40,871 nt of DNA from a virus: the UHGV virus genome UHGV-1368307; one strand, given 5' to 3'. The notes below the pieces were generated by a model. The model ran no database searches. It had not been told where the DNA came from and saw only the letters and a program-made list of their open reading frames with translations. Of this stretch, positions 3,949-32,967 are shown piece by piece (the first letter of the stretch is position 1; each line of letters starts with the position of its first letter). Made by a program: the position numbers and the translations under genes.

Positions 3949-4332
3949 TTACGCCGGGGGTTGAGACTTTTCCCGCGCTTCGTCCGCGTTGTTGATCAGG
4001 TCAAGCGCCTGTTTTAGCAGGCGTGAATGGACGGGGCCGTAGATTTCACGCACCTGCTCTTCTTCATCTACGCTGAATACCGGTTGCTTATCGGTGTCAC
4101 ACAGAACGTCAATGAAGAGCACAACGTCAGCGCAAAGATTACGGTGTGCCTTTTCCGATACTGACACATTTTCATCATCAGCACCCGCTTTCACCACTTC
4201 CTGCCAGCGCAGCCAGGCTTCACCTGACGGCTCACGGAGAACCACTTTGACGCCTTCCCACTCAGGAACGGCGACCGTCTTATGACGAAATCCCGACATC
4301 TTAGCCAGGGCGAGATTTTTAATATTCTTCAT
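3949..4332 (-). CDS. G: Tail assembly chaperone G.
   Basis: 127 aa, acidic, directly upstream of T and of the tape measure. A GGGAAAAG slippery motif sits 6 codons before its stop. GAGAGG RBS. Confidence 0.7.
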   Translation of the reverse strand: MKNIKNLALAKMSGFRHKTVAVPEWEGVKVVLREPSGEAWLRWQEVVKAGADDENVSVSEKAHRNLCADVVLFIDVLCDTDKQPVFSVDEEEQVREIYGPVHSRLLKQALDLINNADEAREKSQPPA

Positions 4333-4340
4333 GAGACCTC

Positions 4341-4784
4341 TCAGGAGCCAGACTCGATGTTTTCAGGCTTACCTTTCAGGCGCAGGGAGAACGTTGCCGC
4401 CACTACGCCGTTGGTACCGGAAGACCAGGTGTGCTGGCGGATTTCAGCCAGGAACTTAAAGCCCTTGCCGGACGGGAAGATAACCTGGAAAGCGTAGGTC
4501 GTATCGTTGTCATACGCTTCACGCAAGGCGTCCTGCGCCGGATTCTTGTAGAAGTTACCGGATAGAGAGATTTCTGACGGAGAAGGCAGGCCGTTGATGT
4601 TCTCCTGCTCGGTAGAGCAAAGCGTTGTTACGTCGATATCCTGCTTCTGGCCACCAGTGAACTGAATTTCTTTGATGGTGCAACTCAGATCGAGAAAGGT
4701 TGCGGAATCCATCGTTTCTTTGGTGGCTGGCAGGGAGGAAATAAGGATCTTCGTCAGCTGCGATTTTTCATAAAGTGCAGACAT
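4341..4784 (-). CDS. Major tail tube protein, V-position, short form.
   Basis: 147 aa. Sits between the U-like gene and G. Strong RBS AGGAGA. Assigned by position in the tail module. Confidence 0.55.
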   Translation of the reverse strand: MSALYEKSQLTKILISSLPATKETMDSATFLDLSCTIKEIQFTGGQKQDIDVTTLCSTEQENINGLPSPSEISLSGNFYKNPAQDALREAYDNDTTYAFQVIFPSGKGFKFLAEIRQHTWSSGTNGVVAATFSLRLKGKPENIESGS

Positions 4785-4798
4785 AGCTGTCTCCTGGA

Positions 4799-4826
4799 AA
4801 AAGAAAACCCGCCATCAGGCGGGTTC
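4799..4826 (-). terminator. Intrinsic terminator-like hairpin between the U-like gene and the major tail gene.
   Basis: aacccgcc-atcag-gcgggtt, followed on the minus strand by TTTTCTT. Confidence 0.45.
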
Positions 4827-4843
4827 GTTGGGTGAATTAATTG

Positions 4844-5191
4844 TCAGGGGGTAACTTTAAAATCCAGGGTGGCACGGTAGAGCCGATAATCTGACTCGTA
4901 CCCGGGGATTTTTACCACCTCTGTAGGGTTTAACGGCTTAAGCGAAGCGAGCGCCAAATCTCTCAGGGAGCGTGATTCAGCGATCGAAGTGGAATACACA
5001 TCGACCTGAACGGAAACCCTGCTCTCTGCCTGGCCACACAGCACGTCAACGGAAACATCATCGACGATGGAAAAGATAATCCAGGGTGGAGAGACAGACG
5101 GTTTCCCGTCACTACCTAATGGCGCAACATAGGGATATACCCGTCCTTCTGCCAGGGGAGAGAGCAAGGCGTAGATATTATCTTCATTCAC
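4844..5191 (-). CDS. Tail terminator / tail completion protein (U-like). GTG start overlaps the upstream stop.
   Basis: 115 aa. Positioned between the gp10-like gene and the major tail protein. Confidence 0.45.
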   Translation of the reverse strand: MNEDNIYALLSPLAEGRVYPYVAPLGSDGKPSVSPPWIIFSIVDDVSVDVLCGQAESRVSVQVDVYSTSIAESRSLRDLALASLKPLNPTEVVKIPGYESDYRLYRATLDFKVTP

Positions 5192-5637
5192 TTGCTCAAT
5201 ACCTCATCAATAGCCTGGTTCATCCTGGCAATGGCGACGCTGGCGGCCTCTTCCTCGCGCGTATCGTAAGCGGGTCGCACAAACGGATGCGCAGGCATGT
5301 TCGCGGTACCCAGTTCAACGAATCGCCAGTAAAAGGCGTTTCTCGGGTTATTCGCCTTCATCGTGTTATCGCTGTTGCCGGTGCGCGGGTTAACGCCACG
5401 AATATGGACGCCGGAAGAAATTTCCCCGCGGCGGCGGCTTTTTTGGGTCACCACCACCACGTTTTTTTTCAGTTTTCCGGTGCGTACTGGTGCGCGTGCG
5501 ATTACTTCTTCCTTAAGCACTTCGGCACCGGCGCGCGTAGCATCACGCAGGACCTTGTTGTTTTCAGCGCGGCTAAGCGCCTCCAGGTCCTTTGCGATAT
5601 CATTTAACCCAGAAAAATCGAGGCTCGTGTCTATCAT
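5188..5637 (-). CDS. HK97 gp10-family head-tail joining (neck) protein.
   Basis: 149 aa with the NAFYWRFVELGTANMPAHPF segment typical of the gp10 family. Confidence 0.6.
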   Translation of the reverse strand: MIDTSLDFSGLNDIAKDLEALSRAENNKVLRDATRAGAEVLKEEVIARAPVRTGKLKKNVVVVTQKSRRRGEISSGVHIRGVNPRTGNSDNTMKANNPRNAFYWRFVELGTANMPAHPFVRPAYDTREEEAASVAIARMNQAIDEVLSK

Positions 5638-6350: not shown

Positions 6351-7562
6351 TCAGCTACCCGCGCCGGTGCTGAATGAACCGTAAACGAACGCCTCAGGGC
6401 GTTTCACAGCCAGCGCCAGACGTTCTTCGCAGCGAATGGAGATCATGTTTTTCTCGAAGTCGTCGGCGTTTTCGGTGGAGATAACCACGTTGGCATCTTC
6501 ACGATCGAACAGTTGGGCTGCGGCATTGAATGCGCCTGTCAGGAATTTGCCCTGGAAAGCTGCTGCCTCAGTTGCTACCACCGGAAGCCCCCAAAGCGTA
6601 GGGCCAGTCAGAGATGCCGGGTTAGCCAGGATATAGCGGCCCAGACTGTCTTTCGTGAGCTCAATTTTCGCCCAGTCGATGAAGTGCAGAACGTGGCCAG
6701 ATGCAGGGAAACGAGCCAGTTGAGCCTGAAGCATTGCCAGGCGCAGATCATCAATCCCGTTCTGGCTCTCAACAGAAAATGCCGGGTCGAATGCTGAGGC
6801 CTGAGGAACGATGCCGTGCAGGTGCACACCAGTTCCGTCGCCGAACAAGATTTCCTGTTCCTCAACATATTTCAGGCCGTAACGCATCTCAGCGTCAACC
6901 GTAGACTGGAGTTGAGCGAAATCGTCAAGGATCTGCTTGGATGCCTTAAACATGTGCGCGATGGTTGTCACCGGCGTGATTTTAGTTGCGAATTCAATAT
7001 CGCTGTAAGGTTTGGCAGTCCCCTCTGCAACGACTTTCGCTGCATTGGTAAAGCCCGTTTGCTGCACCCAGAAAATAGCCGGTGAAGATGTGCGGCCAGG
7101 CGCAATCAGATCACGAATGAAGAGACGCTGTTTTGGTGCAGTGTCGATGCCAGGCAGTCGCTGTGGTTCAACCACGCCATCTGCAACATCTGTAGAAAGC
7201 AAGGCCGCGTGAACTGGGACGCTTACGCGCTTATTGCCTTCAACGCTCGCGGCAAAGGCCTTCAGCGCCTCGCTATTAATCACCACCTGTCCAACAGTTT
7301 CGGTAACTTTAGCAGCGTTGTTCAATGGCATTTGGGCAACATGCTGTTCCAGCTCACCAAGGCTGGCCTTAAGGGTTTTTTCAGCTTCCTTAAGAGCGTT
7401 GAGCTCTGTCGCCATTTTATCTACAACATCTTTGGTCTGAGCTGAGAGCTGACCATTCTTTTTCGATTCGGTCAGTGCCTCTTCTGCTTTCGCGTTGAAT
7501 TTGCTGGTTGCATCTTCAATGCTGGCAGTGACTTTTTTCAGAATTTCGTTTACTTCAGACAT
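6351..7562 (-). CDS. Major capsid protein, HK97 fold, with an N-terminal coiled-coil delta (scaffold) domain.
   Basis: 403 aa. About 100 aa of N-terminal coiled coil, then HK97-type core motifs. No separate scaffold gene is present. Confidence 0.85.
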   Translation of the reverse strand: MSEVNEILKKVTASIEDATSKFNAKAEEALTESKKNGQLSAQTKDVVDKMATELNALKEAEKTLKASLGELEQHVAQMPLNNAAKVTETVGQVVINSEALKAFAASVEGNKRVSVPVHAALLSTDVADGVVEPQRLPGIDTAPKQRLFIRDLIAPGRTSSPAIFWVQQTGFTNAAKVVAEGTAKPYSDIEFATKITPVTTIAHMFKASKQILDDFAQLQSTVDAEMRYGLKYVEEQEILFGDGTGVHLHGIVPQASAFDPAFSVESQNGIDDLRLAMLQAQLARFPASGHVLHFIDWAKIELTKDSLGRYILANPASLTGPTLWGLPVVATEAAAFQGKFLTGAFNAAAQLFDREDANVVISTENADDFEKNMISIRCEERLALAVKRPEAFVYGSFSTGAGS

Positions 7563-11474: not shown

Positions 11475-11947
11475 TAATCCCTCGCTTTCATAAACTCGGC
11501 CAGCGGATCAACCGCTTCAGGACCTTTTGCATTCACTTTCGATCGGCTGGCTGGAGTCATGCCGAACTCACCAAGCATGGCACGCAGACGTTTCCAGGCA
11601 TCAGCTTTCATGATGGCGGCGGGGTGAGCCTTGATCAGCACATCCCCGCTCTGCGTTTCGGTCCGGTAGGTGTAGCCCTCAACTTCAAGCGTGTCGCAGT
11701 GATGCCGGTATTCGGTATAGGCCTCAACCAGCAGCTCAAGGGCTCTGGCATCAAGCTGAGACATCACACCGATAGCATCAAGCTCGTCGGCCATCCGTTT
11801 AAACCAGTATTTCCCCTGCTTGTCGAAATGCTTCGGCGTTGGGGGTACCCCTGAAGGGGGTTTTGGTTCGTTCTCATTGATCGGGCGTTTAGATGGGTTA
11901 CCCCTCACCAAACGTAGATGGGTCGGGGTTTTCGGTGGTCCAGACAT
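11474..11947 (-). CDS. Terminase small subunit, P27 family.
   Basis: 157 aa with the N-terminal LRLVRGNPSKRP motif. GGAG RBS. Overlaps the TerL start. Confidence 0.8.
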   Translation of the reverse strand: MSGPPKTPTHLRLVRGNPSKRPINENEPKPPSGVPPTPKHFDKQGKYWFKRMADELDAIGVMSQLDARALELLVEAYTEYRHHCDTLEVEGYTYRTETQSGDVLIKAHPAAIMKADAWKRLRAMLGEFGMTPASRSKVNAKGPEAVDPLAEFMKARD

Positions 11948-12102
11948 AATCGAAAACTCCTATTAATCATCGAGTGAGGGACCCCATAAAAAAGTTTTCT
12001 AACCTGCGGCGATGTGAAAAGAGGTTAGGCGGCGGTCCTTTAGGGTGATTTCCCTGAGGTTTTTACCCGCCCTCCCCCAGACCGCGCAAATGAGAGCAGA
12101 TA
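11948..12102 (-). other. Candidate cos/packaging-site region between the HNH gene and terS.
   Basis: 155-bp non-coding GC-rich segment (ggcggcggtcc, cccgccctccccc) in the position where HK97-like phages carry cos. Confidence 0.25.
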
Positions 12103-12753
12103 TCATTTAACCGACTCATGCACGATTTTCGCCAGTTTCCGGCTCGGGGGACCACTGTTACCAATGCGAGGGCTGAACACCTTACTGATGTCCCAGCCTG
12201 CCTTCAGTCGATACTCAATGGAGTTTCTCGAAATACCCAGGTAATCCGCCCATTCGTTAAGACACATCGTCTTGCCGTGAGCGGTATATCTGCGGTCGGA
12301 GTTCTCTCGCATTGTCTTTCTCATCTTGTCTACGCCTCGCTTCTGATTGCACACAGGGCAACTTGGCACAAGATTGTCAGGCTCGTTATTGGTCTTACAG
12401 TCATCGAGGTGGTCGATGTGAAGGGTGTCCCAGCCAACGGTTTTTGCACACCAGTGACAACGGAACGGTCCAGCCCCATGTTTGTCGTAATAGACTTTCC
12501 GGTGCTCGTAAACACGAGGACTCCCACATGCCAAAGGATGATCGGGCGCATACACCAGCAGATATCCGCCAGTGTGCTCCAGCTTGCCATCCTTTCTTGT
12601 GCTGAGCTTCTCTGTCGTTCCATGACGCCGGACGCGCATGTAATGCTTTTCACAGTAGTGGCTGTTACGGGATCGTACCGATAATTCGCATCCATCCACA
12701 ATGCAGGCAGCATGGGCGTGCGGAAGCCCTGAACCATGTTTCGATTCAGTCAT
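12103..12753 (-). CDS. HNH endonuclease with an N-terminal Cys/His zinc motif and a C-terminal HTH-like tail. Start ATG at 12753.
   Basis: HIDHLDDCKTNNEPDNLVPSCPVCN HNH core. CxxC...CxxHY...RRHG N-terminal motif shared with the 13699..14265 protein. GAGGTGAAG RBS. Confidence 0.75.
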   Translation of the reverse strand: MTESKHGSGLPHAHAACIVDGCELSVRSRNSHYCEKHYMRVRRHGTTEKLSTRKDGKLEHTGGYLLVYAPDHPLACGSPRVYEHRKVYYDKHGAGPFRCHWCAKTVGWDTLHIDHLDDCKTNNEPDNLVPSCPVCNQKRGVDKMRKTMRENSDRRYTAHGKTMCLNEWADYLGISRNSIEYRLKAGWDISKVFSPRIGNSGPPSRKLAKIVHESVK

Positions 12754-12767
12754 CTTCACCTCGTTAC

Positions 12768-13124
12768 TTAATTTCTGTTCAGGCGCTCGCGTGCTGTCTT
12801 AGCTTTATGGCAGCCGCGGCAAATTGATTCCAGATTAGAAAGATCGTCAGTGCCACCGTGAGCTTTCGGCTTTATGTGGTCCACCGTCTCAGCGGGTGTA
12901 TACCTTCCATTTCGCAGGCATTCCTGACAAAGGTGTTTATCTCTGTCGAGAACGATTGGACGCAGCCTGTCCCACTTGCTGCCATAACCTCGCTGATGCC
13001 TGCTCTGTCCTCGCTGATGCTGCTGCCAGCCTTCGTTAAGGTGCTGGGGACAATAGCCTGAGCGGTCTGTGGTTGTGCCAGGACAGCCACGCTTGCGGCA
13101 TGCTCTCGGTATTAACGCAGGCAT
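12768..13124 (-). CDS. Terminase-associated HNH endonuclease. Start ATG at 13124 in a TGATG overlap with the upstream stop.
   Basis: RGYGSKWDRLRPIVLDRDKHLCQECL...VDHIKPKAHGGTDDLSNLESICRGCH is the classic small HNH found next to terminase genes in HK97-like phages. Confidence 0.85.
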   Translation of the reverse strand: MPALIPRACRKRGCPGTTTDRSGYCPQHLNEGWQQHQRGQSRHQRGYGSKWDRLRPIVLDRDKHLCQECLRNGRYTPAETVDHIKPKAHGGTDDLSNLESICRGCHKAKTARERLNRN

Positions 13125-13702
13125 CAGGCTAACCTCCACGCCCGGCGGCGTTCTGTACGTGGCGCTGAGTCAGGGTGACGCTCAACAGGCTCACCATCAG
13201 CATGATCCACCAGCGAGTAACACGGATAAACCACCGCGCCGCCATAGGCATCCCCGACTGCATAGTCGGCTGGCTTACTGCTGTCCCATCGAGAAAGGAC
13301 TCGTTCAATATGCTGAGGCGGTACGCTGTAGCACACGCCGTGTATAAGGCGCGGCAGCGTGATGAAGTCAGCGCGAGTCTTATCAGCCACTATTAGCCGC
13401 TCAGCAATCTGCATCTGATACTGCGGCGGTCGTCCGGTACCGAGATAAAAGCTCAGCATATCGTCAGGGAAGTGCGCCAGCCAGTCCTGAGCCTTATCAC
13501 GAAAACCATCAACGGGTAATGCATCCTCTTCGATGATAATCACTCTATCTGACTGCTCAGCGGCCCAACGAAGAGCACGAAGATGGGTTGCATTTGCACC
13601 AACCCCAACCTCGTCAACTAACATGTGATGGGCGTCAATAGAGGAATAAAGGCGTTGTGCTAAATCTCTCCGAGAATGATGGGATACGATGATTATTTTC
13701 AA
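13124..13702 (-). CDS. Putative GT-A fold glycosyltransferase, family-25-like. TTG start overlaps the upstream stop.
   Basis: MKIIIVSHHSRRD N-terminal strand and RALRWAAEQSDRVIIIEEDA resemble the GT25 pattern (I.VI.L..S..RR ... SH..LW...ILEDDA). Translationally coupled on both sides to HNH genes. Confidence 0.4.
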   Translation of the reverse strand: MKIIIVSHHSRRDLAQRLYSSIDAHHMLVDEVGVGANATHLRALRWAAEQSDRVIIIEEDALPVDGFRDKAQDWLAHFPDDMLSFYLGTGRPPQYQMQIAERLIVADKTRADFITLPRLIHGVCYSVPPQHIERVLSRWDSSKPADYAVGDAYGGAVVYPCYSLVDHADGEPVERHPDSAPRTERRRAWRLA

Positions 13703-14265
13703 GAAAGCCCCCTGAAATCACCGAATAATTTTGCACGCAACCGCTCGGCAGCTACAGTTGCATCTGCGACACTCTCAAAAACTCCGCCGTAATGAGTTTT
13801 GCCTTGATAATGAACCCTTACCTGATACTTTCCCCTTTTGAGGTAAATATTTCTCAGTCCTGTACTGCTATTTCGGTTAGCACCAGAGCGATTACTTTGG
13901 TTTTCATGGTTCGTCGCCAATCGCAAGTGAGCGATATTTAAGCACGCGCGGTTATGACACTTATGGTCAATAATCATTCCATCAGGAATTAGACCGTAAG
14001 CTCTCTCCCAAACATATCGGTGAGCCCGCATAACCACACCGTTTACATTAATGTGCCCATAACCATTTGCATTTATGTGCCCAGTCCAGATCATGCAACC
14101 ATCAACGTTAATTGTTCGATTGCTTACTGCATCGTCAGCGTTTATTGATACTTTTCTTGCGGGGAGCTGTTCACCACTACGCCTTTTCCTATCGTAGTGA
14201 CGCTGGCAAAGAGATCTGCACTTAACTGGATTATCACACTCAGCTACTGAGCATATTCCAACCAT
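13699..14265 (-). CDS. HNH (HNH_3) homing-type endonuclease with a C-terminal AP2 DNA-binding domain.
   Basis: DHKCHNRACLNIAHLRLATNHENQSN HNH_3 core. GLRNIYLKRGKYQVRVHYQGKTHYGGVFESVADATVAAERL AP2 domain. GGAGA RBS. Confidence 0.75.
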   Translation of the reverse strand: MVGICSVAECDNPVKCRSLCQRHYDRKRRSGEQLPARKVSINADDAVSNRTINVDGCMIWTGHINANGYGHINVNGVVMRAHRYVWERAYGLIPDGMIIDHKCHNRACLNIAHLRLATNHENQSNRSGANRNSSTGLRNIYLKRGKYQVRVHYQGKTHYGGVFESVADATVAAERLRAKLFGDFRGLS

Positions 14266-14287
14266 TGAAATCTCCAGACTACAGGTA

Positions 14288-14312
14288 ATAAAAAAGCCGC
14301 ACGATGGCGGCT
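14288..14312 (-). terminator. Rho-independent terminator closing the cargo cassette.
   Basis: agccgc-acgatg-gcggct hairpin followed on the minus strand by T8. Confidence 0.5.
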
Positions 14313-14442
14313 ACTGTCTAAATATCAGGGTGTTGCTTCGTTTTAACCCTGGTTAAGGTAAGCATTCAGCCCGTCAGTGGTTGGACACTGGCGCACTCTG
14401 TCGCGGGGGGATGGCTGATTACCTCCGAAAAGGAAAATACCC

Positions 14443-14700
14443 ATGGGTTCCATGTCAGAACTGGAAAAAGCAGTTGCAGATTTACAACGTGAATTAAAGA
14501 TTGAAAAAGCCACCAATAAACTGGTTTTTTCTTTGATTATTGAAGCTGTTAACAAGCTGTCACCAAAACAGAATGTTGGGGACGTTCTGATGGATGTACT
14601 GAAGGAGGTTACACCGCCTGAAATTTCATCTGCCCCAGATGCTCACGAAGCGATTAAGAGAGTTGAGAAAATAATTCAGAAGAAGCAACCGCGTTCGTAA
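14443..14700 (+). CDS. Small coiled-coil protein of 85 aa on the strand opposite the late operon.
   Basis: AAGGAA RBS 8 nt upstream of the ATG. Overlaps the 3-prime end of the convergent 14654..14989 gene by 47 nt. Confidence 0.3.
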   Translation: MGSMSELEKAVADLQRELKIEKATNKLVFSLIIEAVNKLSPKQNVGDVLMDVLKEVTPPEISSAPDAHEAIKRVEKIIQKKQPRS

Positions 14701-14989
14701 CTTCCTGAATTAAATCGTCAGCGGCTCGGTGCTGAGCCGCATTCACAATCTGATCGATTACAGTTTTCGCGTGAGTTTCAGCGCGCTGCTTGTAACCTTC
14801 AAGAGTAAAGTCTGCTGTAATGTCTTCACGATAAGGTACAGTCAGCATAGTTTTCTTATCGAGCTGTACTTTAACATCACCACCAATAGCATCAGTCACC
14901 ATGGTTTTCGGAAATCCAGATGCATTTAAGCCGTCAATTTTTAAACTTACAGATTTTTGGGTCGGGAACTCAACCTCATACGAAATCAT
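14654..14989 (-). CDS. Hypothetical 111-aa protein, last gene of the glycosyltransferase cassette.
   Basis: AGGAGGTCTT RBS. Start lies 12 nt after the GT gene stop. Confidence 0.55.
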   Translation of the reverse strand: MISYEVEFPTQKSVSLKIDGLNASGFPKTMVTDAIGGDVKVQLDKKTMLTVPYREDITADFTLEGYKQRAETHAKTVIDQIVNAAQHRAADDLIQEVTNAVASSELFSQLS

Positions 14990-15000
14990 AAGACCTCCTG

Positions 15001-16458
15001 TTATTTATGGCGCCACCAGGCATTTTCTTTGCCGATGCCCCCAGTTTTGAACACCGTGTGAACCAGTGGGCCGGTGACCAGCCTGTCAGCGAATGACTGC
15101 GCAACAATGCCAAAAGCGATCATATCCCCCACCGCGGCGCCAGCCTGTTCTTTCTTCCAGAAACGATAACTCTCGATCCGGTAGTAAAGACGGATGATGC
15201 CGTGAGCGAACGCCATTACATCAGCGCGGGTGCCGCCCAGCAGCCCAGCGTTAAGCATCACATCGTTGCGGTGTTCTTCAATAAACTCCTGATAGATGCG
15301 CTCCGGATGATTCTGCTTTGCCCAGGTATCGGCGTATGTCTTCGGTTCTGAACCGACATACACCTTCCCGGGTTCCATTTCTTCCCACGGCGCGCGAAGC
15401 ATTTCGACATCGGTACCATCAGTACACCAGACGAACCGGTATTCAGGGTGATCGTGCAGGTGCTGCCAGATGTGCAGCCAGCGACGAAAGTAGACATTCA
15501 TCTTCACGTCAGGGACGCGGTACAGCTCAACGTCTGCCGGTGCCGTATGCAGCTCATCCACCAGCGCAATACGTCCACAATTCCGAAGCGATGCCGCCCA
15601 CCTGGTCAGCATGTCAGGAGAGGCGGTCATTTTCGTACCGCGCTGCGGGTCGGGCTGACTAGTCAGTAGCGTAGTGATAACCACGTCTCGCTGCTGGCGG
15701 TATTCAACGTAACCGGTAAACTCGGCATCACGCCGTTCGTTGTGAATTTTAACGTTACGTTCCACCAGCGCCTGCCTGTCTGGTTTCGGTACCGAACGCT
15801 CCACTGCCTCATGCTCATCGAGAGAATGAATCAGCTTTTCTGAACCGACGACATCAGCGTAAGCCCACGTAGTCAGTCCTGCGTTATGGATGCGCAAGGC
15901 GAGGTCGCTGTGCTCGTACATGCCGCGACCATAAACCGGATCGAATCCGCCCACCTTCTCGATGGCACTGCGGTGGTAGTACAGCATCACGCCGCGCTGC
16001 CCGGTGTACGCCACATGCTGATTGTCACGGTAAAGCACCGAAAGGTCATTGAGCTTATTCCGGCCAGCAAGATCGAGAAACTGGTAAGCCAGGTGCGGTT
16101 CAGGTGATTCGATGTAAGGGAGGTGCCAGTTATCAGCGATGGGCCAGGCGTCATCGTCCCACAGGAAGAGATGCTCACACCCGGCGTCCATCAGGGCTGA
16201 CAGGCTGGTGTTCTTCGAAGCAACAATGCCGAGTGATGTTTCATGTCGATGCAGCTGAACGCCGTGGGGAACTACAGCTGCAGGTTTTGAACCATCATCG
16301 ACCACCACCACCAGCGCACCGGCGGGAAGATGCTTCATGTGCTGTTCGAGTGCTCGTTTTAATACGTCTGCGCGCTGATGTGTCGAAATGGCAATGCCGA
16401 TCCGGGATGAAACGACGCTGGCGGGAGCGTATGGGACACCATCAATAGTGACCTGCAT
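15001..16458 (-). CDS. Two-domain glycosyltransferase: N-terminal GT2 (GT-A) domain plus a C-terminal domain of about 230 aa that looks like a second sugar-transferase-like domain.
   Basis: IAISTHQRADVL, VVVVDDGS, LFLWDDDAWP (DxD) and EKVGGFDPVY are GT2 hallmarks. The C-terminal half has VWCTDGTDV and MLNAGLLGGTR. GGGAGG RBS. Confidence 0.65.
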   Translation of the reverse strand: MQVTIDGVPYAPASVVSSRIGIAISTHQRADVLKRALEQHMKHLPAGALVVVVDDGSKPAAVVPHGVQLHRHETSLGIVASKNTSLSALMDAGCEHLFLWDDDAWPIADNWHLPYIESPEPHLAYQFLDLAGRNKLNDLSVLYRDNQHVAYTGQRGVMLYYHRSAIEKVGGFDPVYGRGMYEHSDLALRIHNAGLTTWAYADVVGSEKLIHSLDEHEAVERSVPKPDRQALVERNVKIHNERRDAEFTGYVEYRQQRDVVITTLLTSQPDPQRGTKMTASPDMLTRWAASLRNCGRIALVDELHTAPADVELYRVPDVKMNVYFRRWLHIWQHLHDHPEYRFVWCTDGTDVEMLRAPWEEMEPGKVYVGSEPKTYADTWAKQNHPERIYQEFIEEHRNDVMLNAGLLGGTRADVMAFAHGIIRLYYRIESYRFWKKEQAGAAVGDMIAFGIVAQSFADRLVTGPLVHTVFKTGGIGKENAWWRHK

Positions 16459-16469
16459 AAAACCTCCCG

Positions 16470-17189
16470 TCAGATTCCACGCCGTAAGGAAGTCCAGATC
16501 GCACCGCCTGGCTGCATAGCTTTTTGAATAGTTTCGTCCACAACCTTTTTGATGGACTGCTGTAAGGCGGTCTCTAACGCGTTTTGGTGATTGGCGGCAA
16601 CCGCAAGCTTTTCAGCCAAAATCTTCACGCGGCTTTTACCATCGTCAACATCAAGTGCCATGCCAGCTTCGTGCTGTTTACCCTTGTCGGTGACGTTCAC
16701 GTTCAATTTCACGTTATACCCCGTAGACAATACGCCATCTCCGATTAGCGCCTTGTGGATGTAAGCCTGGCCAGCTTTATCGACGAACCAGCCCCATTCG
16801 AGGCCTTCAACTGAGCCGTGGTTGCGGGTTTCTTCTCGCGGATCGTCTACAGGGCTGCCGATGTAACCACCGGAGAAATTAACTGGCAGGCTATCCCATG
16901 ACGTTGGCACTCCGTCATCATCTACTTGCAGTGCCACTAATTTATAACCGTCGGGCACCATGATTTTTTGAGAGCTTTTGAATGGTGAATCTGTGTAGCC
17001 AGTAAAGGTGATAGCCCCAACGTTGAAGCCCTCAAAGATAGTCCCGGAGTGCCAGTCAGGTTTAACGGCATAAAGATGCACACGGCATTTATCACCATGC
17101 TCAATCCGGTTCCCGGCGCCGTCGGTGGTGACGGTTCCTAAAGAGGGAAGCGTTACTGTTACTTCACAAACTTGATATGTCTGAGACAT
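16470..17189 (-). CDS. Hypothetical 239-aa protein: beta-rich N-terminal part and a coiled-coil C-terminus. First gene of the cassette.
   Basis: AAGGAA RBS. Preceded by a structured leader (9-bp long-range stem at 17207..17260) and a terminator. Confidence 0.55.
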   Translation of the reverse strand: MSQTYQVCEVTVTLPSLGTVTTDGAGNRIEHGDKCRVHLYAVKPDWHSGTIFEGFNVGAITFTGYTDSPFKSSQKIMVPDGYKLVALQVDDDGVPTSWDSLPVNFSGGYIGSPVDDPREETRNHGSVEGLEWGWFVDKAGQAYIHKALIGDGVLSTGYNVKLNVNVTDKGKQHEAGMALDVDDGKSRVKILAEKLAVAANHQNALETALQQSIKKVVDETIQKAMQPGGAIWTSLRRGI

Positions 17190-17206
17190 GTTATTTCCTT
17201 TTAGGC

Positions 17207-17260
17207 GTGAGCCTGTCGCACGGCAAAGCCGCCGAAAGTTAACGGTTTACCCAGGCTCAC
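17207..17260 (-). promoter_or_regulatory. Structured 5-prime leader: perfect 9-bp stem gtgagcctg/caggctcac enclosing a 36-nt loop, immediately upstream of the RBS of the 16470..17189 gene.
   Basis: Inverted repeat seen directly in the sequence. Confidence 0.4.
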
Positions 17261-17300
17261 AGCTGAAAGACTTTCTTTGATGTGCGCGTGCGATGCGCAT

Positions 17301-17329
17301 AAAAAAAGCCACCAGCGGATGCCAATGGC
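17301..17329 (-). terminator. Rho-independent terminator after the lysis cassette and the acidic protein gene.
   Basis: gccattgg-catccgc-tggtggc hairpin (7 bp including G-U pairs) followed by T7 on the minus strand. Confidence 0.45.
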
Positions 17330-17487
17330 TTGAATAGATGTGGTGGCGGGTGCTGATCTCCCGCTTTGCGGCTTAACGATCTAGGTCTGCGGTGCCACAA
17401 GAACGACCGGTCACGCCAATCAGCCTTGGCTACTCCCCCACAAATTCGACATTATCACAGGCACTCAGTGAATGCCTGCTGTAATGG

Positions 17488-17685
17488 CTAGTCGTCGAGT
17501 TGCAACACACCATGCTCCAGCGAATCTGAGTACGCGATCAACCCTGTGTATTCAGGGATAATCTCGCCATCATCAGCTTCGAACTCCGGGATGGTGCCAG
17601 TGGTGATAGTGTATTGAGGTGCGCCGTCTTCTTTCGCGAAATTAGCCAGGTCTTCGATTTGCTTAGCTGTGAGAACTACAGTCAT
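17488..17685 (-). CDS. Small, strongly acidic 65-aa protein.
   Basis: GAGGAAA RBS. About 25 percent Asp/Glu. Directly follows the spanin genes. Confidence 0.5.
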   Translation of the reverse strand: MTVVLTAKQIEDLANFAKEDGAPQYTITTGTIPEFEADDGEIIPEYTGLIAYSDSLEHGVLQLDD

Positions 17686-17713
17686 GCTCTTTCCTCAGTA
17701 ATTAAAGGCCCCG

Positions 17714-17944
17714 CTATTGCGAGGCTCTGGTTTCTTTCTGGCAGTTCGCCTGCCACGCTTTGTTATGCGCCAGAATGTCTTTCTTCGTTTGGCGGTCCAG
17801 AACATCCCAGTCATGAGCGGTGCCGTAAATGGGTCTAACCCAATCGCAAGCCGTGTCCACTACCTCAACCCTTACGGGTCCAGTTTGTGCGCAGCTCACG
17901 ATCAACATCATCGCCAGGCATATGGTTAACGGTCTGCTGTACAT
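17714..17944 (-). CDS. o-spanin (Rz1-like outer-membrane lipoprotein), overlapped arrangement.
   Basis: Signal peptide ending in the lipobox IVSC. Starts inside the Rz frame in +1 and extends 151 nt beyond its end. Confidence 0.5.
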   Translation of the reverse strand: MYSRPLTICLAMMLIVSCAQTGPVRVEVVDTACDWVRPIYGTAHDWDVLDRQTKKDILAHNKAWQANCQKETRASQ

Positions 17945-18134
17945 TGCTGGCCTCTTTCGTTGTCTCTACCCGGCGTTCTGCTGCTGCGACCGTTGCAGCT
18001 GCGTTATCTTCGGTGCGCTGCTGAACTGCTTTTGCTTCTGCTTTGCTTGAGCCGCGAATATGGCCCAGGCCGAAAGCGCCAGCGATGGTCGCAATGACTG
18101 CTGCAGCAATACAAATTAAAGTTTCAAACCCCAT
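17865..18134 (-). CDS. i-spanin (Rz-like). Real start ATG at 18134; the track ORF is N-extended to 18302.
   Basis: N-terminal TM helix LICIAAAVIATIAGAF followed by a charged coiled coil. GAGGT RBS. Confidence 0.6.
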   Translation of the reverse strand: MGFETLICIAAAVIATIAGAFGLGHIRGSSKAEAKAVQQRTEDNAAATVAAAERRVETTKEASNVQQTVNHMPGDDVDRELRTNWTRKG

Positions 18135-18141
18135 AGTGACC

Positions 18142-18771
18142 TCACACCAGCACAGATTTTGCCAGGTTAAACAGTGCGCGGCGTTTATCCAGCCCGTTAC
18201 GTCCGCCATTGATAAGCAGCGTGACGCGCTCCACGTCGCCGGAATGGAGCAGGCATCCGTGCGAGACATAGAACCATGCAGCGGAGCGCGCAGCATATTC
18301 ATCCTGTTCCAGCAATTCAGGCTGGGTTACAAGGTCCAACTTCAGCGCGTGGCCACAGTTGCGGTAATTGCTAAGCCCGGTGATTTGCTTCAGGCCGCGA
18401 CCGCGATATTTCCATCCATCACCAGCAACCTGGTTGCCCAGGTTCTTTTTGCCCCACTCACCGCCATAAACCAGATTGGCTATCGCTTTCTGATTTGCCG
18501 GTTGCGTTGCCGTTCTGCCGAGTGCGGCGGCCTGCTGTGCAGTAATGCGATGCTTGCCGAACGTAGGTACCAGGTTTTCTGCCGCATAGTTCAGGTTTTC
18601 CACCAGCCGGGTGAAACCGCCGGACTCATGGCCCATCTGCGCGATAAACATGGCCTGATCGAGCGGCGCGGTTATGCCGAATTCCTTCATTGCAGCATCG
18701 ATATAGCGAAACCAGCGCACGGCTAGACCGGCGCTTATACCTGCCGCCTTTTCAAATTGTGTTTGGTTCAT
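18142..18771 (-). CDS. Endolysin, glycoside hydrolase family 19 (chitinase-like).
   Basis: FIAQMGHESGGFTRLVENLNY and GRGLKQITGLSNY are GH19 catalytic-region motifs. Confidence 0.8.
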   Translation of the reverse strand: MNQTQFEKAAGISAGLAVRWFRYIDAAMKEFGITAPLDQAMFIAQMGHESGGFTRLVENLNYAAENLVPTFGKHRITAQQAAALGRTATQPANQKAIANLVYGGEWGKKNLGNQVAGDGWKYRGRGLKQITGLSNYRNCGHALKLDLVTQPELLEQDEYAARSAAWFYVSHGCLLHSGDVERVTLLINGGRNGLDKRRALFNLAKSVLV

Positions 18772-19049
18772 TAGTGCCTCAGATGATCTACCAGACGTGC
18801 CAGATTTCCCCGGGCCCTCATAACGGCGGCGCAGATAAGGAGGTTTGCCACCACCACCAGCCAGCTGGAGTCACGATAGAGACCGAAGATAAACTGCAAC
18901 GGGATAACGGCATAAACCAGTACGGTTACATACGCCATGATAGAGATGAAAGGACGATGCCGGGCGCCATGTCGCTGGTAGAACATCAGAACGATAACAA
19001 TTACCGCGCAGATAAATGCATTAAAGAATGCAGTCAGCTCACCTGCCAT
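18771..19049 (-). CDS. Small membrane protein with three TM segments, in the holin/antiholin position.
   Basis: 92 aa with three hydrophobic helices. Overlaps the upstream holin-like gene end and the endolysin start. Confidence 0.5.
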   Translation of the reverse strand: MAGELTAFFNAFICAVIVIVLMFYQRHGARHRPFISIMAYVTVLVYAVIPLQFIFGLYRDSSWLVVVANLLICAAVMRARGNLARLVDHLRH

Positions 19050-19428
19050 TTCCCCCTCCTCCGCGTAAACGCGAGAAAAAGCTGAACAGGCTGTTCAGAT
19101 CCTGGTTATTAAGATAAGTTAGGATTTTGATACACAGGGCAGACAGAATCACTGCTCCTAGTGCATCCAACGGTTTTTCATATCGCGATGCGGCATTTAG
19201 CAGTGAGCCAACAAATCCAGCCCCAAGCACCCCAACGATAAACGACGTCAGAAAATACCCAGCCAGTCGTGCACGAGACAGGTTCGTTGCTGTTGCGACG
19301 TAGAACACCGCACCACCAAACGCCCCAAACACCACACCGAAATCTGTATGAGTAAAGACGCCGTACAGGACTGAACCCAGCAGGCCGCCGCCGAGAACTG
19401 CGCCGGTGCCGGTTAATGGATCGGACAT
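19039..19428 (-). CDS. Putative holin of 129 aa, Gly-rich with several TM segments. Real start ATG at 19428.
   Basis: GAGGGGG RBS. First gene after the tR' terminator. Confidence 0.55.
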   Translation of the reverse strand: MSDPLTGTGAVLGGGLLGSVLYGVFTHTDFGVVFGAFGGAVFYVATATNLSRARLAGYFLTSFIVGVLGAGFVGSLLNAASRYEKPLDALGAVILSALCIKILTYLNNQDLNSLFSFFSRLRGGGGNGR

Positions 19429-19472
19429 TAAGCCCCCTCTTATTGCTGTTGATCCTCTCAGAAGGTTGAGGG

Positions 19473-19501
19473 GAAACAAAAAAGGCCACCCGAAGGTAGC
19501 C
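19473..19501 (-). terminator. Candidate late terminator tR', the Q antitermination target, upstream of the lysis genes.
   Basis: ggcuacc-UUCG-ggtggcc hairpin (7 bp, one G-U) followed by TTTTTTGTTT on the minus strand. Confidence 0.6.
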
Positions 19502-19782
19502 TGTAGTAATGATTGTGAAGGCTGGAGTCGAACCAGCTTCCATCGGTGCGCTGCCGATTGGGTTACGCGCGCCTTGTGGCTACTTATCCAGAATATTCAC
19601 CGCAAAACTATTCCCTAGCTCGCCGCTGAGTTTCATCACAATGGGGATCGCTTTGCCGCGCCAGGGAAGTGTGCCTGGTCTCACCGGGATGTCGTCACAT
19701 ACTCAAAGCGATTTCCGTTGTGTAGAAACTAAATAGCCCCACTAATACAGGCAGGGCTTAATTTATTTTATTCGTGTAGGCG
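19502..19782 (-). promoter_or_regulatory. Late regulatory interval expected to hold pR', qut and a short 6S-like leader.
   Basis: Non-coding, between the HNH gene and tR'. No unambiguous -10/-35 could be fixed by eye. Confidence 0.3.
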
Positions 19783-20268
19783 TTAACGACACATTTCAGC
19801 TTTAGCTTTCATGTAAGCCTCGTGAGCCAACTCCGCAGTTTGGAAACTACCGAGCTCTTTACGTTGCCCGTTGATGCGAATAGCGGAACGCCATACGCCG
19901 CGAGCTTTGCACCAGTTTGCTCCAATCAACTTGGACTTCGCCCCTTTTCGAACTTTGTGTCTGTTCTGTTGATTAACAAACTGGGTAACGATACGTAAGT
20001 TGTCCCATCGGTTATCTTTGGGATTGCCATTGATATGATCGACACACTTATCAGCCGGCGGCAGCGCACCGTCCATATACAAAAAAGCCAACCGATGAGC
20101 GAAAATTAATTTCTTATCGATCATTATCTGGATATAGCCGTACGTATCTGCGTTCCCGGCTATTTTGCCAGGCGTAGACCGTGAGTTTGTTCGCTTGATC
20201 CAAACAAATAAACCAGTCAAAGGGTCGTACTTCAGAACCTCTTTCAGCCTTTCTTGCGTGATGCTCAT
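19783..20268 (-). CDS. HNH_3 homing-type endonuclease with an AP2 domain, inserted between Q and the late promoter region.
   Basis: CVDHINGNPKDNRWDNLRIVTQFVNQQN HNH_3 core. GVWRSAIRINGQRKELGSFQTAELAHEAY AP2 domain. Confidence 0.75.
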   Translation of the reverse strand: MSITQERLKEVLKYDPLTGLFVWIKRTNSRSTPGKIAGNADTYGYIQIMIDKKLIFAHRLAFLYMDGALPPADKCVDHINGNPKDNRWDNLRIVTQFVNQQNRHKVRKGAKSKLIGANWCKARGVWRSAIRINGQRKELGSFQTAELAHEAYMKAKAEMCR

Positions 20269-20563: not shown

Positions 20564-21346
20564 TTAATAAGTTGTTGCCTTCTCAAATTCTACTGCCGCG
20601 TGACGCTCCCACTGGCGCAGCGTGTCCACCAGCATTTCATAAAAGGGTTTCCAGTTGCGTGACCATGAGGACTGATGGAGGTCCGGGAGACGCTTCAGAA
20701 TGGCACGGTGTACCGTCGCCGAGGAGATAGCAGAGAAGCCATTACCAGAGCAACGTTCACACGTTTTGAAAACCGGTGCGCCACGTTCTTTGGTCGCTTT
20801 GCGATCCAGCACTTCACCTTTACCGCCGCATCTGCACCGCGCAAGGATTACCTTTTTCCCTCCGCAGGTTTCGCAAACCCTTTTCACCAGCTCATTTTTA
20901 ATCTTCGGGGCCACCACTTCGGCACCGTCATCGTCGAAGATACCAGGATGTTTAACCACATCCTCATTCCCGGAGATAAAACCGGTACCGCTGCAACTGT
21001 GACATGTCACGCTGGTAGCCGCCGAACGGGAGTAATCAGCAAAGGCAAACTGCGCCAGCGTCAACATGCATGCTCCGAGCTTGTCGCCAGCGGCTTTGCG
21101 GACATTTTTAGGAGCGTTTTTGATAGCAACCTGCGCCAGCGCCTGAACTGCGAGCTGTTCATCTGTTTTGCTGATGCCGGACTTGCCGAAGAAAGCAGCC
21201 AGGCCGAAGCGTGCACGGCTGCTGGTGGTACCAATCGCCGCCATTACATCTGTTCCTGTAAGGCGGTCCGGAGAAGTTCCCTTCACGTCATCGCTGATAT
21301 GCATTCCCTGAGGACTAAAATGTTTGAGCGATGCTTCCAGTTTCAT
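20564..21346 (-). CDS. Q: Late antiterminator Q (phage 82/21-type, zinc-binding).
   Basis: 260 aa with CETCGGKK...CRCGGKG...CERCSGNG Cys clusters. Lies between the replication genes and the late region. GAGGGAAA RBS. Confidence 0.65.
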   Translation of the reverse strand: MKLEASLKHFSPQGMHISDDVKGTSPDRLTGTDVMAAIGTTSSRARFGLAAFFGKSGISKTDEQLAVQALAQVAIKNAPKNVRKAAGDKLGACMLTLAQFAFADYSRSAATSVTCHSCSGTGFISGNEDVVKHPGIFDDDGAEVVAPKIKNELVKRVCETCGGKKVILARCRCGGKGEVLDRKATKERGAPVFKTCERCSGNGFSAISSATVHRAILKRLPDLHQSSWSRNWKPFYEMLVDTLRQWERHAAVEFEKATTY

Positions 21347-31604: not shown

Positions 31605-31647
31605 AACCGCCGCTCATTCTTACACAAAATGGGCGGCGGTTTTTTTA
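31605..31647 (+). terminator. Terminator after the dinI-like gene.
   Basis: accgccgc / gcggcggt 8-bp stem followed by T7. Confidence 0.5.
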
Positions 31648-32952
31648 CGATCCCTGTTCCTGCTTTAAAGCCTCTTCCGTTTGTTTCTGTTTCTGATTCC
31701 AGATGCTGTCAGCTGGCATTTCCACTCGGACACTTACAAACTGGTCAGACGGGATATCAACCAGGTCTCCATCAGCTAACCCCTCCCGCTCATTTCTGGC
31801 AAAAGCAGGTGCTGAAGGATGTGTGCGGTGGTAGGTTTTCACCAAGATAGAACCGTCAGCCTTAACCTCATAGTCCAGCCAGATTAAAGGCTGCTTATTT
31901 CGATCAGAGGGTATTTCAAAGCCGCCATCAATCCCACCCCATGCAGCGTCAGCATTCAGCCCCATACACCCTTCAATCAGATACTCACCGATAGCCTGGC
32001 GGGTTACAGTGCATCCTTCAGATTCATCGTTAAGCTGACACGAACCATCACCGAACAACTGTACAATCGGAGAAGCGGCTTTTAACGTACCGTCAGATGC
32101 ACGGGTCGTATTTCCAGTGTGGTAAATCTGCATCCAGCCAGAATCATTACCATCCGCCATACTCATGAACTGAATAATTTTCCCGCTAAGAATCAGCGCA
32201 GCAAATGATTGTTGCGCTGCCGGAGTGCTTCCACTCCCAATATTACGGTCTGATAACCGTATACCAGAACCATACATTCCAGGACCACCAGAAGTTGCGG
32301 GAGTAACGTTACAAAAACGGGTTCCCTGGCTTTTATCCCAGATATCTGAAATTACGGGAAGATTTTTTGAACCGACACCAAATGACCCGGTGGCCAGTAC
32401 ATCATTATCCCCTTCACCAGTATTTTTAGTTGCCGCATTTCCCAGACCGAGTTTTGTACGCGCTCCAGCGGCAGTCTTATCACCAGTCCCCCCCTGTGAA
32501 ATACTTAGCGCTGTAGTTAGCCCGGAAAGGCTGGTAATGTCGCTGTTATCCCCTTTCTTCGCCAGCGATTTTTGACCCGGCACGGTAACGGCAGTGCCGT
32601 TGATAGTGATGGTGACATCAGATGTCCCGTTCATTACATCAGCGAACCCGCTCATGTAGCGCTGGTACATCGTGAAGGTTTCAGCGATATCCTGCGCCAG
32701 CCCATCCACGCTCAGACTGTCACTCAGAAGAATGGCAAATCGGGTTCCGGCGGGAACTGCTGGGTTAGCCGCTGGCGTTACGGTGAGACTTGTTGCGCTG
32801 CCAATGGTGGTAATCTGAAATACCTGCACAGGGCTGGTCATTGCAATAACGGTACAGCCGTTACGAATAAGAGAACCAGCAGCAGTGAAGTTTGTGCCGG
32901 TACCTGTAAGGGTGTTTCCGCTGATGGCGATAGTGCCAGTAGTATAAATCAT
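31645..32952 (-). CDS. Side tail fibre protein. Real start ATG at 32952.
   Basis: 435 aa, Gly/Thr/Ser-rich, with the KLGLGNAATKN motif seen in lambdoid Stf proteins. GGAG RBS. Confidence 0.7.
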   Translation of the reverse strand: MIYTTGTIAISGNTLTGTGTNFTAAGSLIRNGCTVIAMTSPVQVFQITTIGSATSLTVTPAANPAVPAGTRFAILLSDSLSVDGLAQDIAETFTMYQRYMSGFADVMNGTSDVTITINGTAVTVPGQKSLAKKGDNSDITSLSGLTTALSISQGGTGDKTAAGARTKLGLGNAATKNTGEGDNDVLATGSFGVGSKNLPVISDIWDKSQGTRFCNVTPATSGGPGMYGSGIRLSDRNIGSGSTPAAQQSFAALILSGKIIQFMSMADGNDSGWMQIYHTGNTTRASDGTLKAASPIVQLFGDGSCQLNDESEGCTVTRQAIGEYLIEGCMGLNADAAWGGIDGGFEIPSDRNKQPLIWLDYEVKADGSILVKTYHRTHPSAPAFARNEREGLADGDLVDIPSDQFVSVRVEMPADSIWNQKQKQTEEALKQEQGS

Positions 32953-32967
32953 GTTTTCTCCAGGCAA

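Follow-up and report, generated by a model that had tools for sequence, protein, structure and literature searches.

To our knowledge, actinobacteriophages are the only phages whose particles have been shown to be glycosylated, and there is reportedly little evidence of such modification in the phage population at large. Outside phages, virus-encoded glycosyltransferases (GTs) glycosylate the capsid of the chlorovirus PBCV-1, a eukaryotic algal virus whose capsid glycans are N-linked at internal sites. In mycobacteriophages, GTs modify capsid and tail-tube proteins according to four papers (PMC12363180, PMC10877033, PMC11600133, PMC11256854), one of which counts gp110 of phage Che8 among the essential GTs for glycosylating the capsid, with reference to Freeman et al. 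2023 (PMC12363180). The sequence analyzed here (the window) is UHGV virus genome UHGV-1368307, a complete HK97-like (Hendrixvirinae-type) temperate phage genome of 40,871 nucleotides (~41 kb), with the nearest named relatives of its proteins coming from the Enterobacter cloacae complex. Its late operon contains two GT genes on the minus strand, which encode a soluble two-domain enzyme of 485 amino acids (aa) (GT485; 15001..16458) and a small, putatively GT-A-type, GT25-like enzyme of 192 aa (GT192; 13124..13702). Based on orthology, synteny, a C-terminal Gly-Ser tag on structural proteins and the co-variation of this tag with the GT genes, GT485 and GT192 are proposed, with a probability of roughly 0.7, to form a phage-encoded virion glycosylation system of the Che8 type, the phage particle itself probably being their target. 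A preliminary description of the window held that the sequence does not say what these enzymes act on; the first three of these features nevertheless favor virion proteins over lipopolysaccharide (LPS) or a defense substrate.

Relationship to mycobacteriophage glycosyltransferase genes

A tblastn search of 50,697 phage records with GT192 identified relatives in 719 of them, including 662 Mycobacterium phages, and typically the matching gene is the GT gene that lies closest to the right end of the genome. Matches to GT485 were found in 609 records (568 from Mycobacterium phages), with at least 80% of the query covered in 383; among the matches listed, identity to cluster F phages is about 42-48%. 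Over its full length, GT485 shares 43-45% identity with Wee gp104, Taj gp107, Zerg gp100 and other proteins, in which both domains and all motifs are kept, and GT192 is a full-length orthologue of both Wee gp108 and Che8 gp110 (for the latter, 32% identity over 194 aa, E 1e-29). When one genome per species was scanned, all but a few of the GT192 relatives came from Actinomycetes or from Enterobacterales, the latter represented by many genera.

The gene order is also comparable, with the GT genes placed at the late or right-arm end, ahead of an HNH endonuclease gene, cos and terS. In Wee, the order is gp104 (GT485 type), three small genes, gp108 (GT192 type), HNH, cos and terS; in Che8, gp108-110 are followed by gp111 and HNH; and in the window, GT485, several inserted genes and GT192 are followed by two HNH genes and terS. 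The main differences are that the window belongs to an HK97-like lambdoid phage of a Gram-negative enterobacterium, in which virion glycosylation is a prediction, and that Che8 has its own GTs, gp108 and gp109, in place of GT485, neither of which is similar to it. Che8 gp108 matches Methyltransf_24 and TylF, whereas the window segment contains no methyltransferase domain; because Wee-type clusters also lack one, a sugar O-methyltransferase is probably not obligatory.

In 80 IMG/VR loci containing close relatives of the window major capsid protein (MCP), GT485 and GT192 were found jointly in every GT-positive locus. Among 33 species-representative genomes carrying both genes, 18 show a 4-nt overlap of GT192 with the end of GT485, and in three more the GT192 start is no further than 2 nt from the GT485 stop; the others have inserts of 95-793 nt. 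As the two genes abut or overlap in most genomes and are detected together, the bicistronic GT485-GT192 pair is the conserved core. The gap in the window is the largest (1298 nt) and is filled by a 111-aa gene, an 85-aa gene, a hairpin and a homing-type HNH gene. Thus, the GT25-like gene, previously considered separate from a cassette containing GT485, is one half of a conserved pair that has been split here by 1.3 kb of insertions.

Both GT genes are present in phages mEp390, HK542, ECP1, ENT39118, ENT47670, Fostie, LMessi, FSL SP-016 and AsXd-1, as well as in ~300-kb Klebsiella jumbo phages, and the 90% identity cluster of GT485 has 4655 members. Given its occurrence in mEp390, HK542, ECP1 and ENT39118 and the size of this cluster, the earlier remark that such genes are not standard lambdoid equipment was too strong. 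In mEp390, the order is GT485, HNH, GT192 and HNH. In the Cronobacter phage ENT47670, the pair (40111..42143) is embedded in the tail gene cluster, where it directly follows the major tail gene and precedes the chaperone/tape-measure genes. In the jumbo phage vB_KpM_FBKp24, adjacent GT485 (56% identity) and GT192 genes form a two-gene unit (139828..141897) on the strand opposite to its neighbors and away from obvious structural genes.

GT485 matches phrog_1579 ('glycosyltransferase') from end to end (E 4e-252). The GT2 motifs reported in its N-terminal domain (VVVVDDGS, LFLWDDDAWP and GGFD) are all present, and their core residues (D54 D55 G56 S57, D101-D103 and G170-D173) are invariant in 27 homologues; these GT-A signatures (DDGS, DDD and GGFD) are also kept in Wee gp104. 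It is other members of the family that pass the 23.3-bit cutoff of Pfam Glycos_transf_2 (PF00535): ENT47670 (29.0), P0100 (28.3), P0012 (26.3) and Wee gp104 (24.0). Residues about 255-485 constitute an autonomous C-terminal domain of ~230 aa, which also exists as stand-alone proteins of ~220 aa, and a phmmer search of 1.84 billion representatives yielded 455 relatives, some of them stand-alone. The TDxD-like motif noted in this domain, WCTDGTD, is invariant at D347 and D350 (DGTD) in 45 divergent members, together with W, N403 and G405 (N-x-G), G463 and a terminal H-K. Only two members showed weak matches to GT34 (E 0.06), and an hhalign comparison of the domain with the GT192 family was negative. 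The DGTD, N-x-G and H-K motifs are compatible with a DxD transferase, although they do not prove one. Considering that the motifs are invariant but the domain matches no named family, a third transferase domain is plausible from motifs only, and it is with this qualification that the earlier count of three sugar-transferase-type domains in a Q-dependent late operon can be supported.

GT192 matches phrog_854 ('glucosyltransferase', E 2e-69), and its family has the invariant motifs EDDA-P and SLVDHAD. Searches of PDB sequences with the window protein and its close homologues returned nothing. The suggestion that it is GT25-like holds by transitivity, because Pfam Glyco_transf_25 (PF01755, 24-bit cutoff) recognizes its orthologues Che8 gp110, with 32.3 bits, and Wee gp108, with 30.8 bits. 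In CAZy, GT25 comparators include the lipooligosaccharide (LOS) beta-1,4-galactosyltransferases LgtB/Lic2A and the collagen galactosyltransferase ColGalT1.

C-terminal Gly-Ser ends of virion proteins

The window MCP, an HK97-fold protein (6351..7562, minus strand; phrog_10, E 4e-87), ends in ...FSTGAGS, with the Gly-Ser codons at 6354..6359. The major tail (tube) protein (4341..4784, minus strand; phrog_158, E 6e-59) ends in ...ENIESGS, with the tag codons at 4344..4349, and the tail fiber (31645..32967, minus strand; phrog_1591, E 1e-159) ends in ...KQEQGS. These three are the only GS-ending products among the 176 open reading frames (ORFs) with 60 aa or more on the two strands; the first two are predicted substrates and the fiber is a possible third. 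The same dipeptide terminates the MCP (gp6, ...FNKTGS) and tail tube (gp11, ...QYSDGS) of Che8, and Wee has the same ends. In mEp390, four of the 21 late proteins checked end in GS, i.e., the MCP, the Ad1 head-tail adaptor, the tail tube and the tail fiber gp23 (...EDSGS). FSL SP-016 has a different, protease-fused MCP ending in ...GAGAGS and a tube ending in ...IDPGS, while ENT47670 has yet another MCP and tube, with the ends ...GEATS and ...SEPSS. In comparison with the Che8-type system, the tag extends to the tail fiber in the window and to the Ad1 adaptor in HK97-type heads.

Co-variation of the tag with the GT genes was assessed in loci containing close relatives of the window MCP and enough flanking sequence. 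The MCP ends in Ser or Thr in 17 of 18 GT-positive loci and in two of 29 GT-negative loci (6/7 versus 2/10 when distinct tail variants are counted), and the tube does so in 13/13 and 5/21 loci, respectively. The ends of GT-negative relatives are ...GGGA, ...GGQ, ...PSAG or an immunoglobulin (Ig)-like domain. One of the two GT-negative loci with an S/T-ending MCP (L033) carries a different GT with 40% identity to residues 18-485 of GT485 but no detectable GT192, and its MCP (...SGVPTT) and tube (...IRPATT) both end in Thr-Thr; it may represent a variant system with a different tag.

A more independent test is provided by 44 genomes, one per species, that were found through GT192 and in which tubes were detected by tblastn. 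The 30 detectable MCPs represent five families (window type, HK97 type, SP-016 fusion type, ENT47670 type and Che8-like), and all of them end in Ser, preceded by G in 22 proteins, T in six, N in one and A in one. Similarly, all 14 detected tubes end in GS or TS, and the residues preceding the tag are hypervariable. Among plus-strand ORFs of at least 100 aa in GT192 loci, 80 of 902 end in GS or TS; nearly all of these are in the virion module, where they encode MCPs, tubes and, in HK97-type heads, the 108-aa Ad1 adaptor, and sometimes a portal protein.

Several observations were also made on the ends of these proteins in other loci. In a number of GT-negative loci (L035, L036, L039, L044, L057, L073 and others), the MCP and tube tails resemble each other, such as ...TAPAAGGGA paired with ...PIVPAPSAG, and both end in NGG in L073. 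The lysis-terS slot of L035, which was searched for another enzyme that could explain the tails, contains only small genes as judged from ORF sizes alone. Tubes ending in ...CTLTVN occur in several GT-negative loci (L037, L060, L063, L065, L066, L080, L082 and L085); this is the end type of the long (234-aa) HK97 tube with a C-terminal Ig-like domain, found in HK97/HK633 (L088 and L137). The GS/TS-tagged tubes of GT-positive loci include short forms of 147-156 aa (the window, mEp390 and HK542), and a glycan and an Ig-like domain might represent alternative surface decorations.

Candidate targets of the glycosyltransferases

If the pair glycosylates the virion, Q-dependent late transcription would read through the terminator-like hairpins around the GT genes and yield GT485 and GT192 together with the structural proteins. 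Being soluble, the enzymes would modify virion proteins in the cytoplasm soon after their synthesis, recognizing short flexible tails that end in [G/T]-Ser-COOH on the MCP, tail tube and tail fiber. GT192, as the gp110 orthologue, would most likely attach the first sugar to the terminal Ser, and the two catalytic domains of GT485 would probably extend the glycan, resulting in O-linked glycans on capsomer centers, the tail tube and fiber tips. Possible benefits include shielding from antibodies, proteases and capsid-protein host sensors, as well as mucus adhesion; the acceptor residue, order of action, sugars and benefit are all inferred. In addition, the odds lean modestly toward the [G/T]-Ser-COOH tail being a minimal portable acceptor tag for a GT25-like and a two-domain GT, used by up to four virion proteins (the MCP, Ad1 head-tail adaptor, tail tube and tail fiber) in temperate Enterobacterales phages including mEp390 and HK542, and shared with actinobacteriophages and the ~300-kb Klebsiella jumbo phages.

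Several findings argue against these proposals. The window copy of GT485 scores 15.5 bits on Glycos_transf_2, below the cutoff; its C-terminal domain, represented by 45 members, matched no named family in Pfam, NCBIfam or PDB sequences; the window GT192 and 29 close homologues did not match Glyco_transf_25; and the AlphaFold models of GT485 and GT192 are both poor (predicted local distance difference test scores of 40 and 59). The Che8 glycans, with which the tag is compared, reportedly lie at the C terminus. The E. coli phages SaltyDalty and Fraca have GT485 with a 239-aa-type gene upstream but apparently lack GT192. One locus (L021) is tagged yet GT-negative within 10 kb, and another (L054) is GT-positive with an untagged MCP. 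The Fisher p values for the MCP and tube contrasts (1e-9 and 1e-5) overstate the independence of the observations, because the loci are related and the GT genes are located ~5 kb from the MCP gene. In HK97, the MCP gp5 (4028..5185) ends in ...FSSGS and the Ad1 adaptor gp6 (5219..5545) in ...SEEGS, and the tags of HK97 and HK633 on these two proteins (...SSGS and ...EEGS) are the same as those of mEp390 and HK542; however, HK97 lacks both GTs and HK633 has GT192 only. HK97, tagged but GT-free, shows that the tag can be kept in the absence of the enzymes and cannot serve alone as a diagnostic feature; its capsid protein bears the tag naturally and is presumably unmodified. Finally, the sole glycostain survey located was negative for ten phages, whose GT gene content was unchecked (PMC12894461).

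A competing explanation invokes shared ancestry or linkage, according to which active or decaying GTs simply lie near old Gly-Ser ends that have another role or none. The tags kept without a full GT pair in HK97, HK633 and L021 would fit this explanation, as would the similar MCP and tube tails of GT-negative relatives (GGGA with PSAG; NGG with NGG) and the short distance between the GT and MCP genes, which are therefore often co-inherited. Nevertheless, the tag recurs across two bacterial phyla, on no fewer than five unrelated MCP families and on several tube families, in each case alongside GT192, and the fact that its last two residues are fixed while the preceding ones vary freely indicates selection rather than descent. 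Furthermore, the GT ORFs are intact and their catalytic motifs are invariant across 30-90% identity. Linkage is thus considered an improbable explanation, although the strongest of the competing ones.

It is less probable still that the two GTs modify a host surface glycan (LPS core, O-antigen or capsule), thereby changing the serotype or blocking superinfection. Many LPS and LOS enzymes belong to GT2 and GT25, Pfam calls its GT25 model 'LPS biosynthesis protein', and prophages often carry O-antigen-modifying GTs (PMC12373910). The GtrABC modules of P22, SfX and ENT47670, for example, also contain a phage-encoded GT2-type enzyme in a temperate enterobacterial phage; however, they are integrase-adjacent, prophage-expressed and dependent on the GtrA flippase, GtrC and a membrane-anchored GtrB, whereas GT485 and GT192 are soluble, late and surrounded by HNH genes and small soluble proteins. 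No transmembrane segment was detected in either GT by a hydropathy scan (maximum 19-residue hydropathy, 1.41 for GT485 and 0.85 for GT192), and no GtrA/GtrC-type partner is present among their neighbors. The terminator-like hairpins flanking the genes resemble those of a moron, but the genes reside in the Q-dependent late operon, and a crude consensus scan of 11900..19600 revealed no sigma-70-like promoter upstream of them, the sole minus-strand promoter-like site in this region (14563..14536) being located downstream of GT485. Besides the GT pair, which in its genome is situated inside the tail genes, ENT47670 possesses a full gtrABC module adjacent to its integrase. Moreover, the closest homologues of the pair are mycobacteriophage virion-glycosylation genes, and modification of a surface glycan does not predict the co-variation of the C-terminal tag.

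DNA-glucosylating phage GTs are classic anti-restriction tools, as exemplified by T-even phages, in which they glucosylate DNA against restriction. Glycosylation of phage DNA or of a host defense or metabolic protein for immune evasion is, despite this precedent, the four HNH genes in the same late operon and the location of the jumbo Klebsiella phage pair outside any obvious structural cluster, very unlikely here, given that no hydroxymethylase or base-hypermodification gene was found among the window genes profiled or named in relatives (the early region was not systematically annotated), that capsid and tail tube are the targets of those homologues that have been studied experimentally (PMC12363180), and that the tag on the MCP, tube and fiber and its co-variation with the GTs would be left unexplained.

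With respect to previous knowledge, the genes are labeled as glycosyltransferases in PHROGs and RefSeq, the pair is already annotated as glycosyl- or glucosyltransferases in mEp390, HK542, ECP1 and ENT39118, and this kind of system is known from mycobacteriophages. What appears to be new is the role in virion glycosylation assigned to the enterobacterial pair, the two-residue C-terminal tag common to different phyla, and the natural experiment offered by mEp390 and HK542 versus HK97. Searches of the available literature found no report of glycosylated virions in phages of enterobacteria or other Gram-negative bacteria, no functional work on the GT genes of mEp390, HK542 or ENT39118, and no papers on FBKp24. 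If virion glycosylation is the correct interpretation, this would be the first such system in phages of Gram-negative bacteria, and virion glycosylation would be a cross-phylum trait spread by gene exchange. It could be studied in E. coli K-12 with mEp390, HK542 and ECP1 and with the best-understood capsid system (HK97 gp5), so that the question is directly testable in E. coli. A two-residue tag and two genes could also serve in E. coli as a tool for decorating recombinant proteins or phage particles with defined sugars. Since mycobacteriophage glycans blunt antibody recognition, the pair may also matter for phage therapy against Enterobacter, Klebsiella and Citrobacter. More generally, prophage 'glycosyltransferase' morons should not be presumed to be seroconversion genes.

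Operon context and inserted genes

The late operon of the window lies on the minus strand and starts with Q (20564..21346), an HNH gene, two holins, endolysin, Rz/Rz1 and a 65-aa gene. These are followed by a terminator-like hairpin, a 239-aa gene, GT485, a 111-aa gene and a second hairpin, and then by an HNH_3 gene (188 aa, HNH188), GT192, an HK97 gp74-type HNH gene, an HNH-like 218-aa gene and terS, from which the operon continues to terL, portal, protease, MCP, connectors and the major tail protein. All five minus-strand ORFs of the preliminary description were recovered at its coordinates, and its intrinsic terminators correspond to terminator-like hairpins at 17331..17306, 5' of the 239-aa gene (11-bp stem and T7), and 14312..14295, between the inserted genes and the HNH188 gene (6-bp GC-rich stem and T6); 14 terminator-like sites were found in the region compared with 7.7 +/- 2.6 in shuffled sequences. 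The translational coupling of GT192 on both sides was also confirmed: its TTG start overlaps the HNH188 stop (TTGA), and its stop overlaps the ATG of the next HNH gene (TGATG), with GGAGG upstream. The real start of the gp74-type HNH gene is probably this ATG at 13124.

The structured leader described for the 239-aa gene (about 17191..17310, minus strand) folds into a long hairpin adjoining the ribosome-binding site (z = -2.96), and an Rfam scan of 11900..19600 at E <= 1, including this leader, found no family. The 120-nt sequence 17191..17310 shares 97% identity with its counterparts in mEp213 and mEp043 and about 83% with that in the E. coli Nissle prophage; in all three, it precedes unrelated genes in the lysis-to-terminase slot. 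A conserved leader with a regulatory function and a recombination joint are both conceivable.

The 239-aa, 111-aa, 85-aa and HNH188 genes are best viewed as separate mosaic insertions outside the GT system, so that the discrete 239/485/111-aa cassette initially proposed does not hold. The 239-aa protein (16470..17189, minus strand; phrog_13555) has a DUF1983 or tail-tip-like C-terminal half (Pfam Phage_Tail_Tip, 23.4 bits), and members of its cluster are named 'phage tail tip fiber protein / DUF1983'. Its gene is often located directly upstream of GT485 but is not an obligate partner: in the 80 loci, the family is present in GT-positive and GT-negative loci alike, some GT loci lack it, and it occurs in 11 records of isolated phages, including N15 (gp59) and HK639. 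A role of this protein as partner or substrate of the GTs was rejected, because it occurs without them, is absent from many GT-positive phages and has no tag. The 111-aa gene (14654..14989, minus strand; phrog_11851, E 7e-42) was seen in only three of the 80 loci, and mEp390 lacks both it and the 239-aa gene; a partnership of either product with the GTs is not supported. A conserved phage ORF of 85 aa on the plus strand (14443..14700; full-length match to phrog_21164, E 6e-45), which had been overlooked inside the cassette, overlaps the 3' end of the convergent 111-aa gene by 47 nt and is situated between this gene and the second hairpin; it is likewise rare and co-occurs with the 111-aa gene in loci L014 and L015.

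HNH188 (13699..14265, minus strand) is a homing-type HNH_3 endonuclease (Pfam HNH_3, E 2e-17; phrog_3593), and mEp390 has a different HNH at the same position. The gp74-type HNH (12768..13139, minus strand; Pfam HNH, E 1e-16; phrog_144) is a packaging accessory. Together with the genes at 19783..20268 and 12103..12759, these make four HNH-type genes on the minus strand of a single late operon, including two of the homing type (HNH_3/AP2-like), one of the gp74 type and one divergent 218-aa gene directly upstream of terS. The two homing-type genes are situated between Q and a holin gene and between the two GT genes, respectively.

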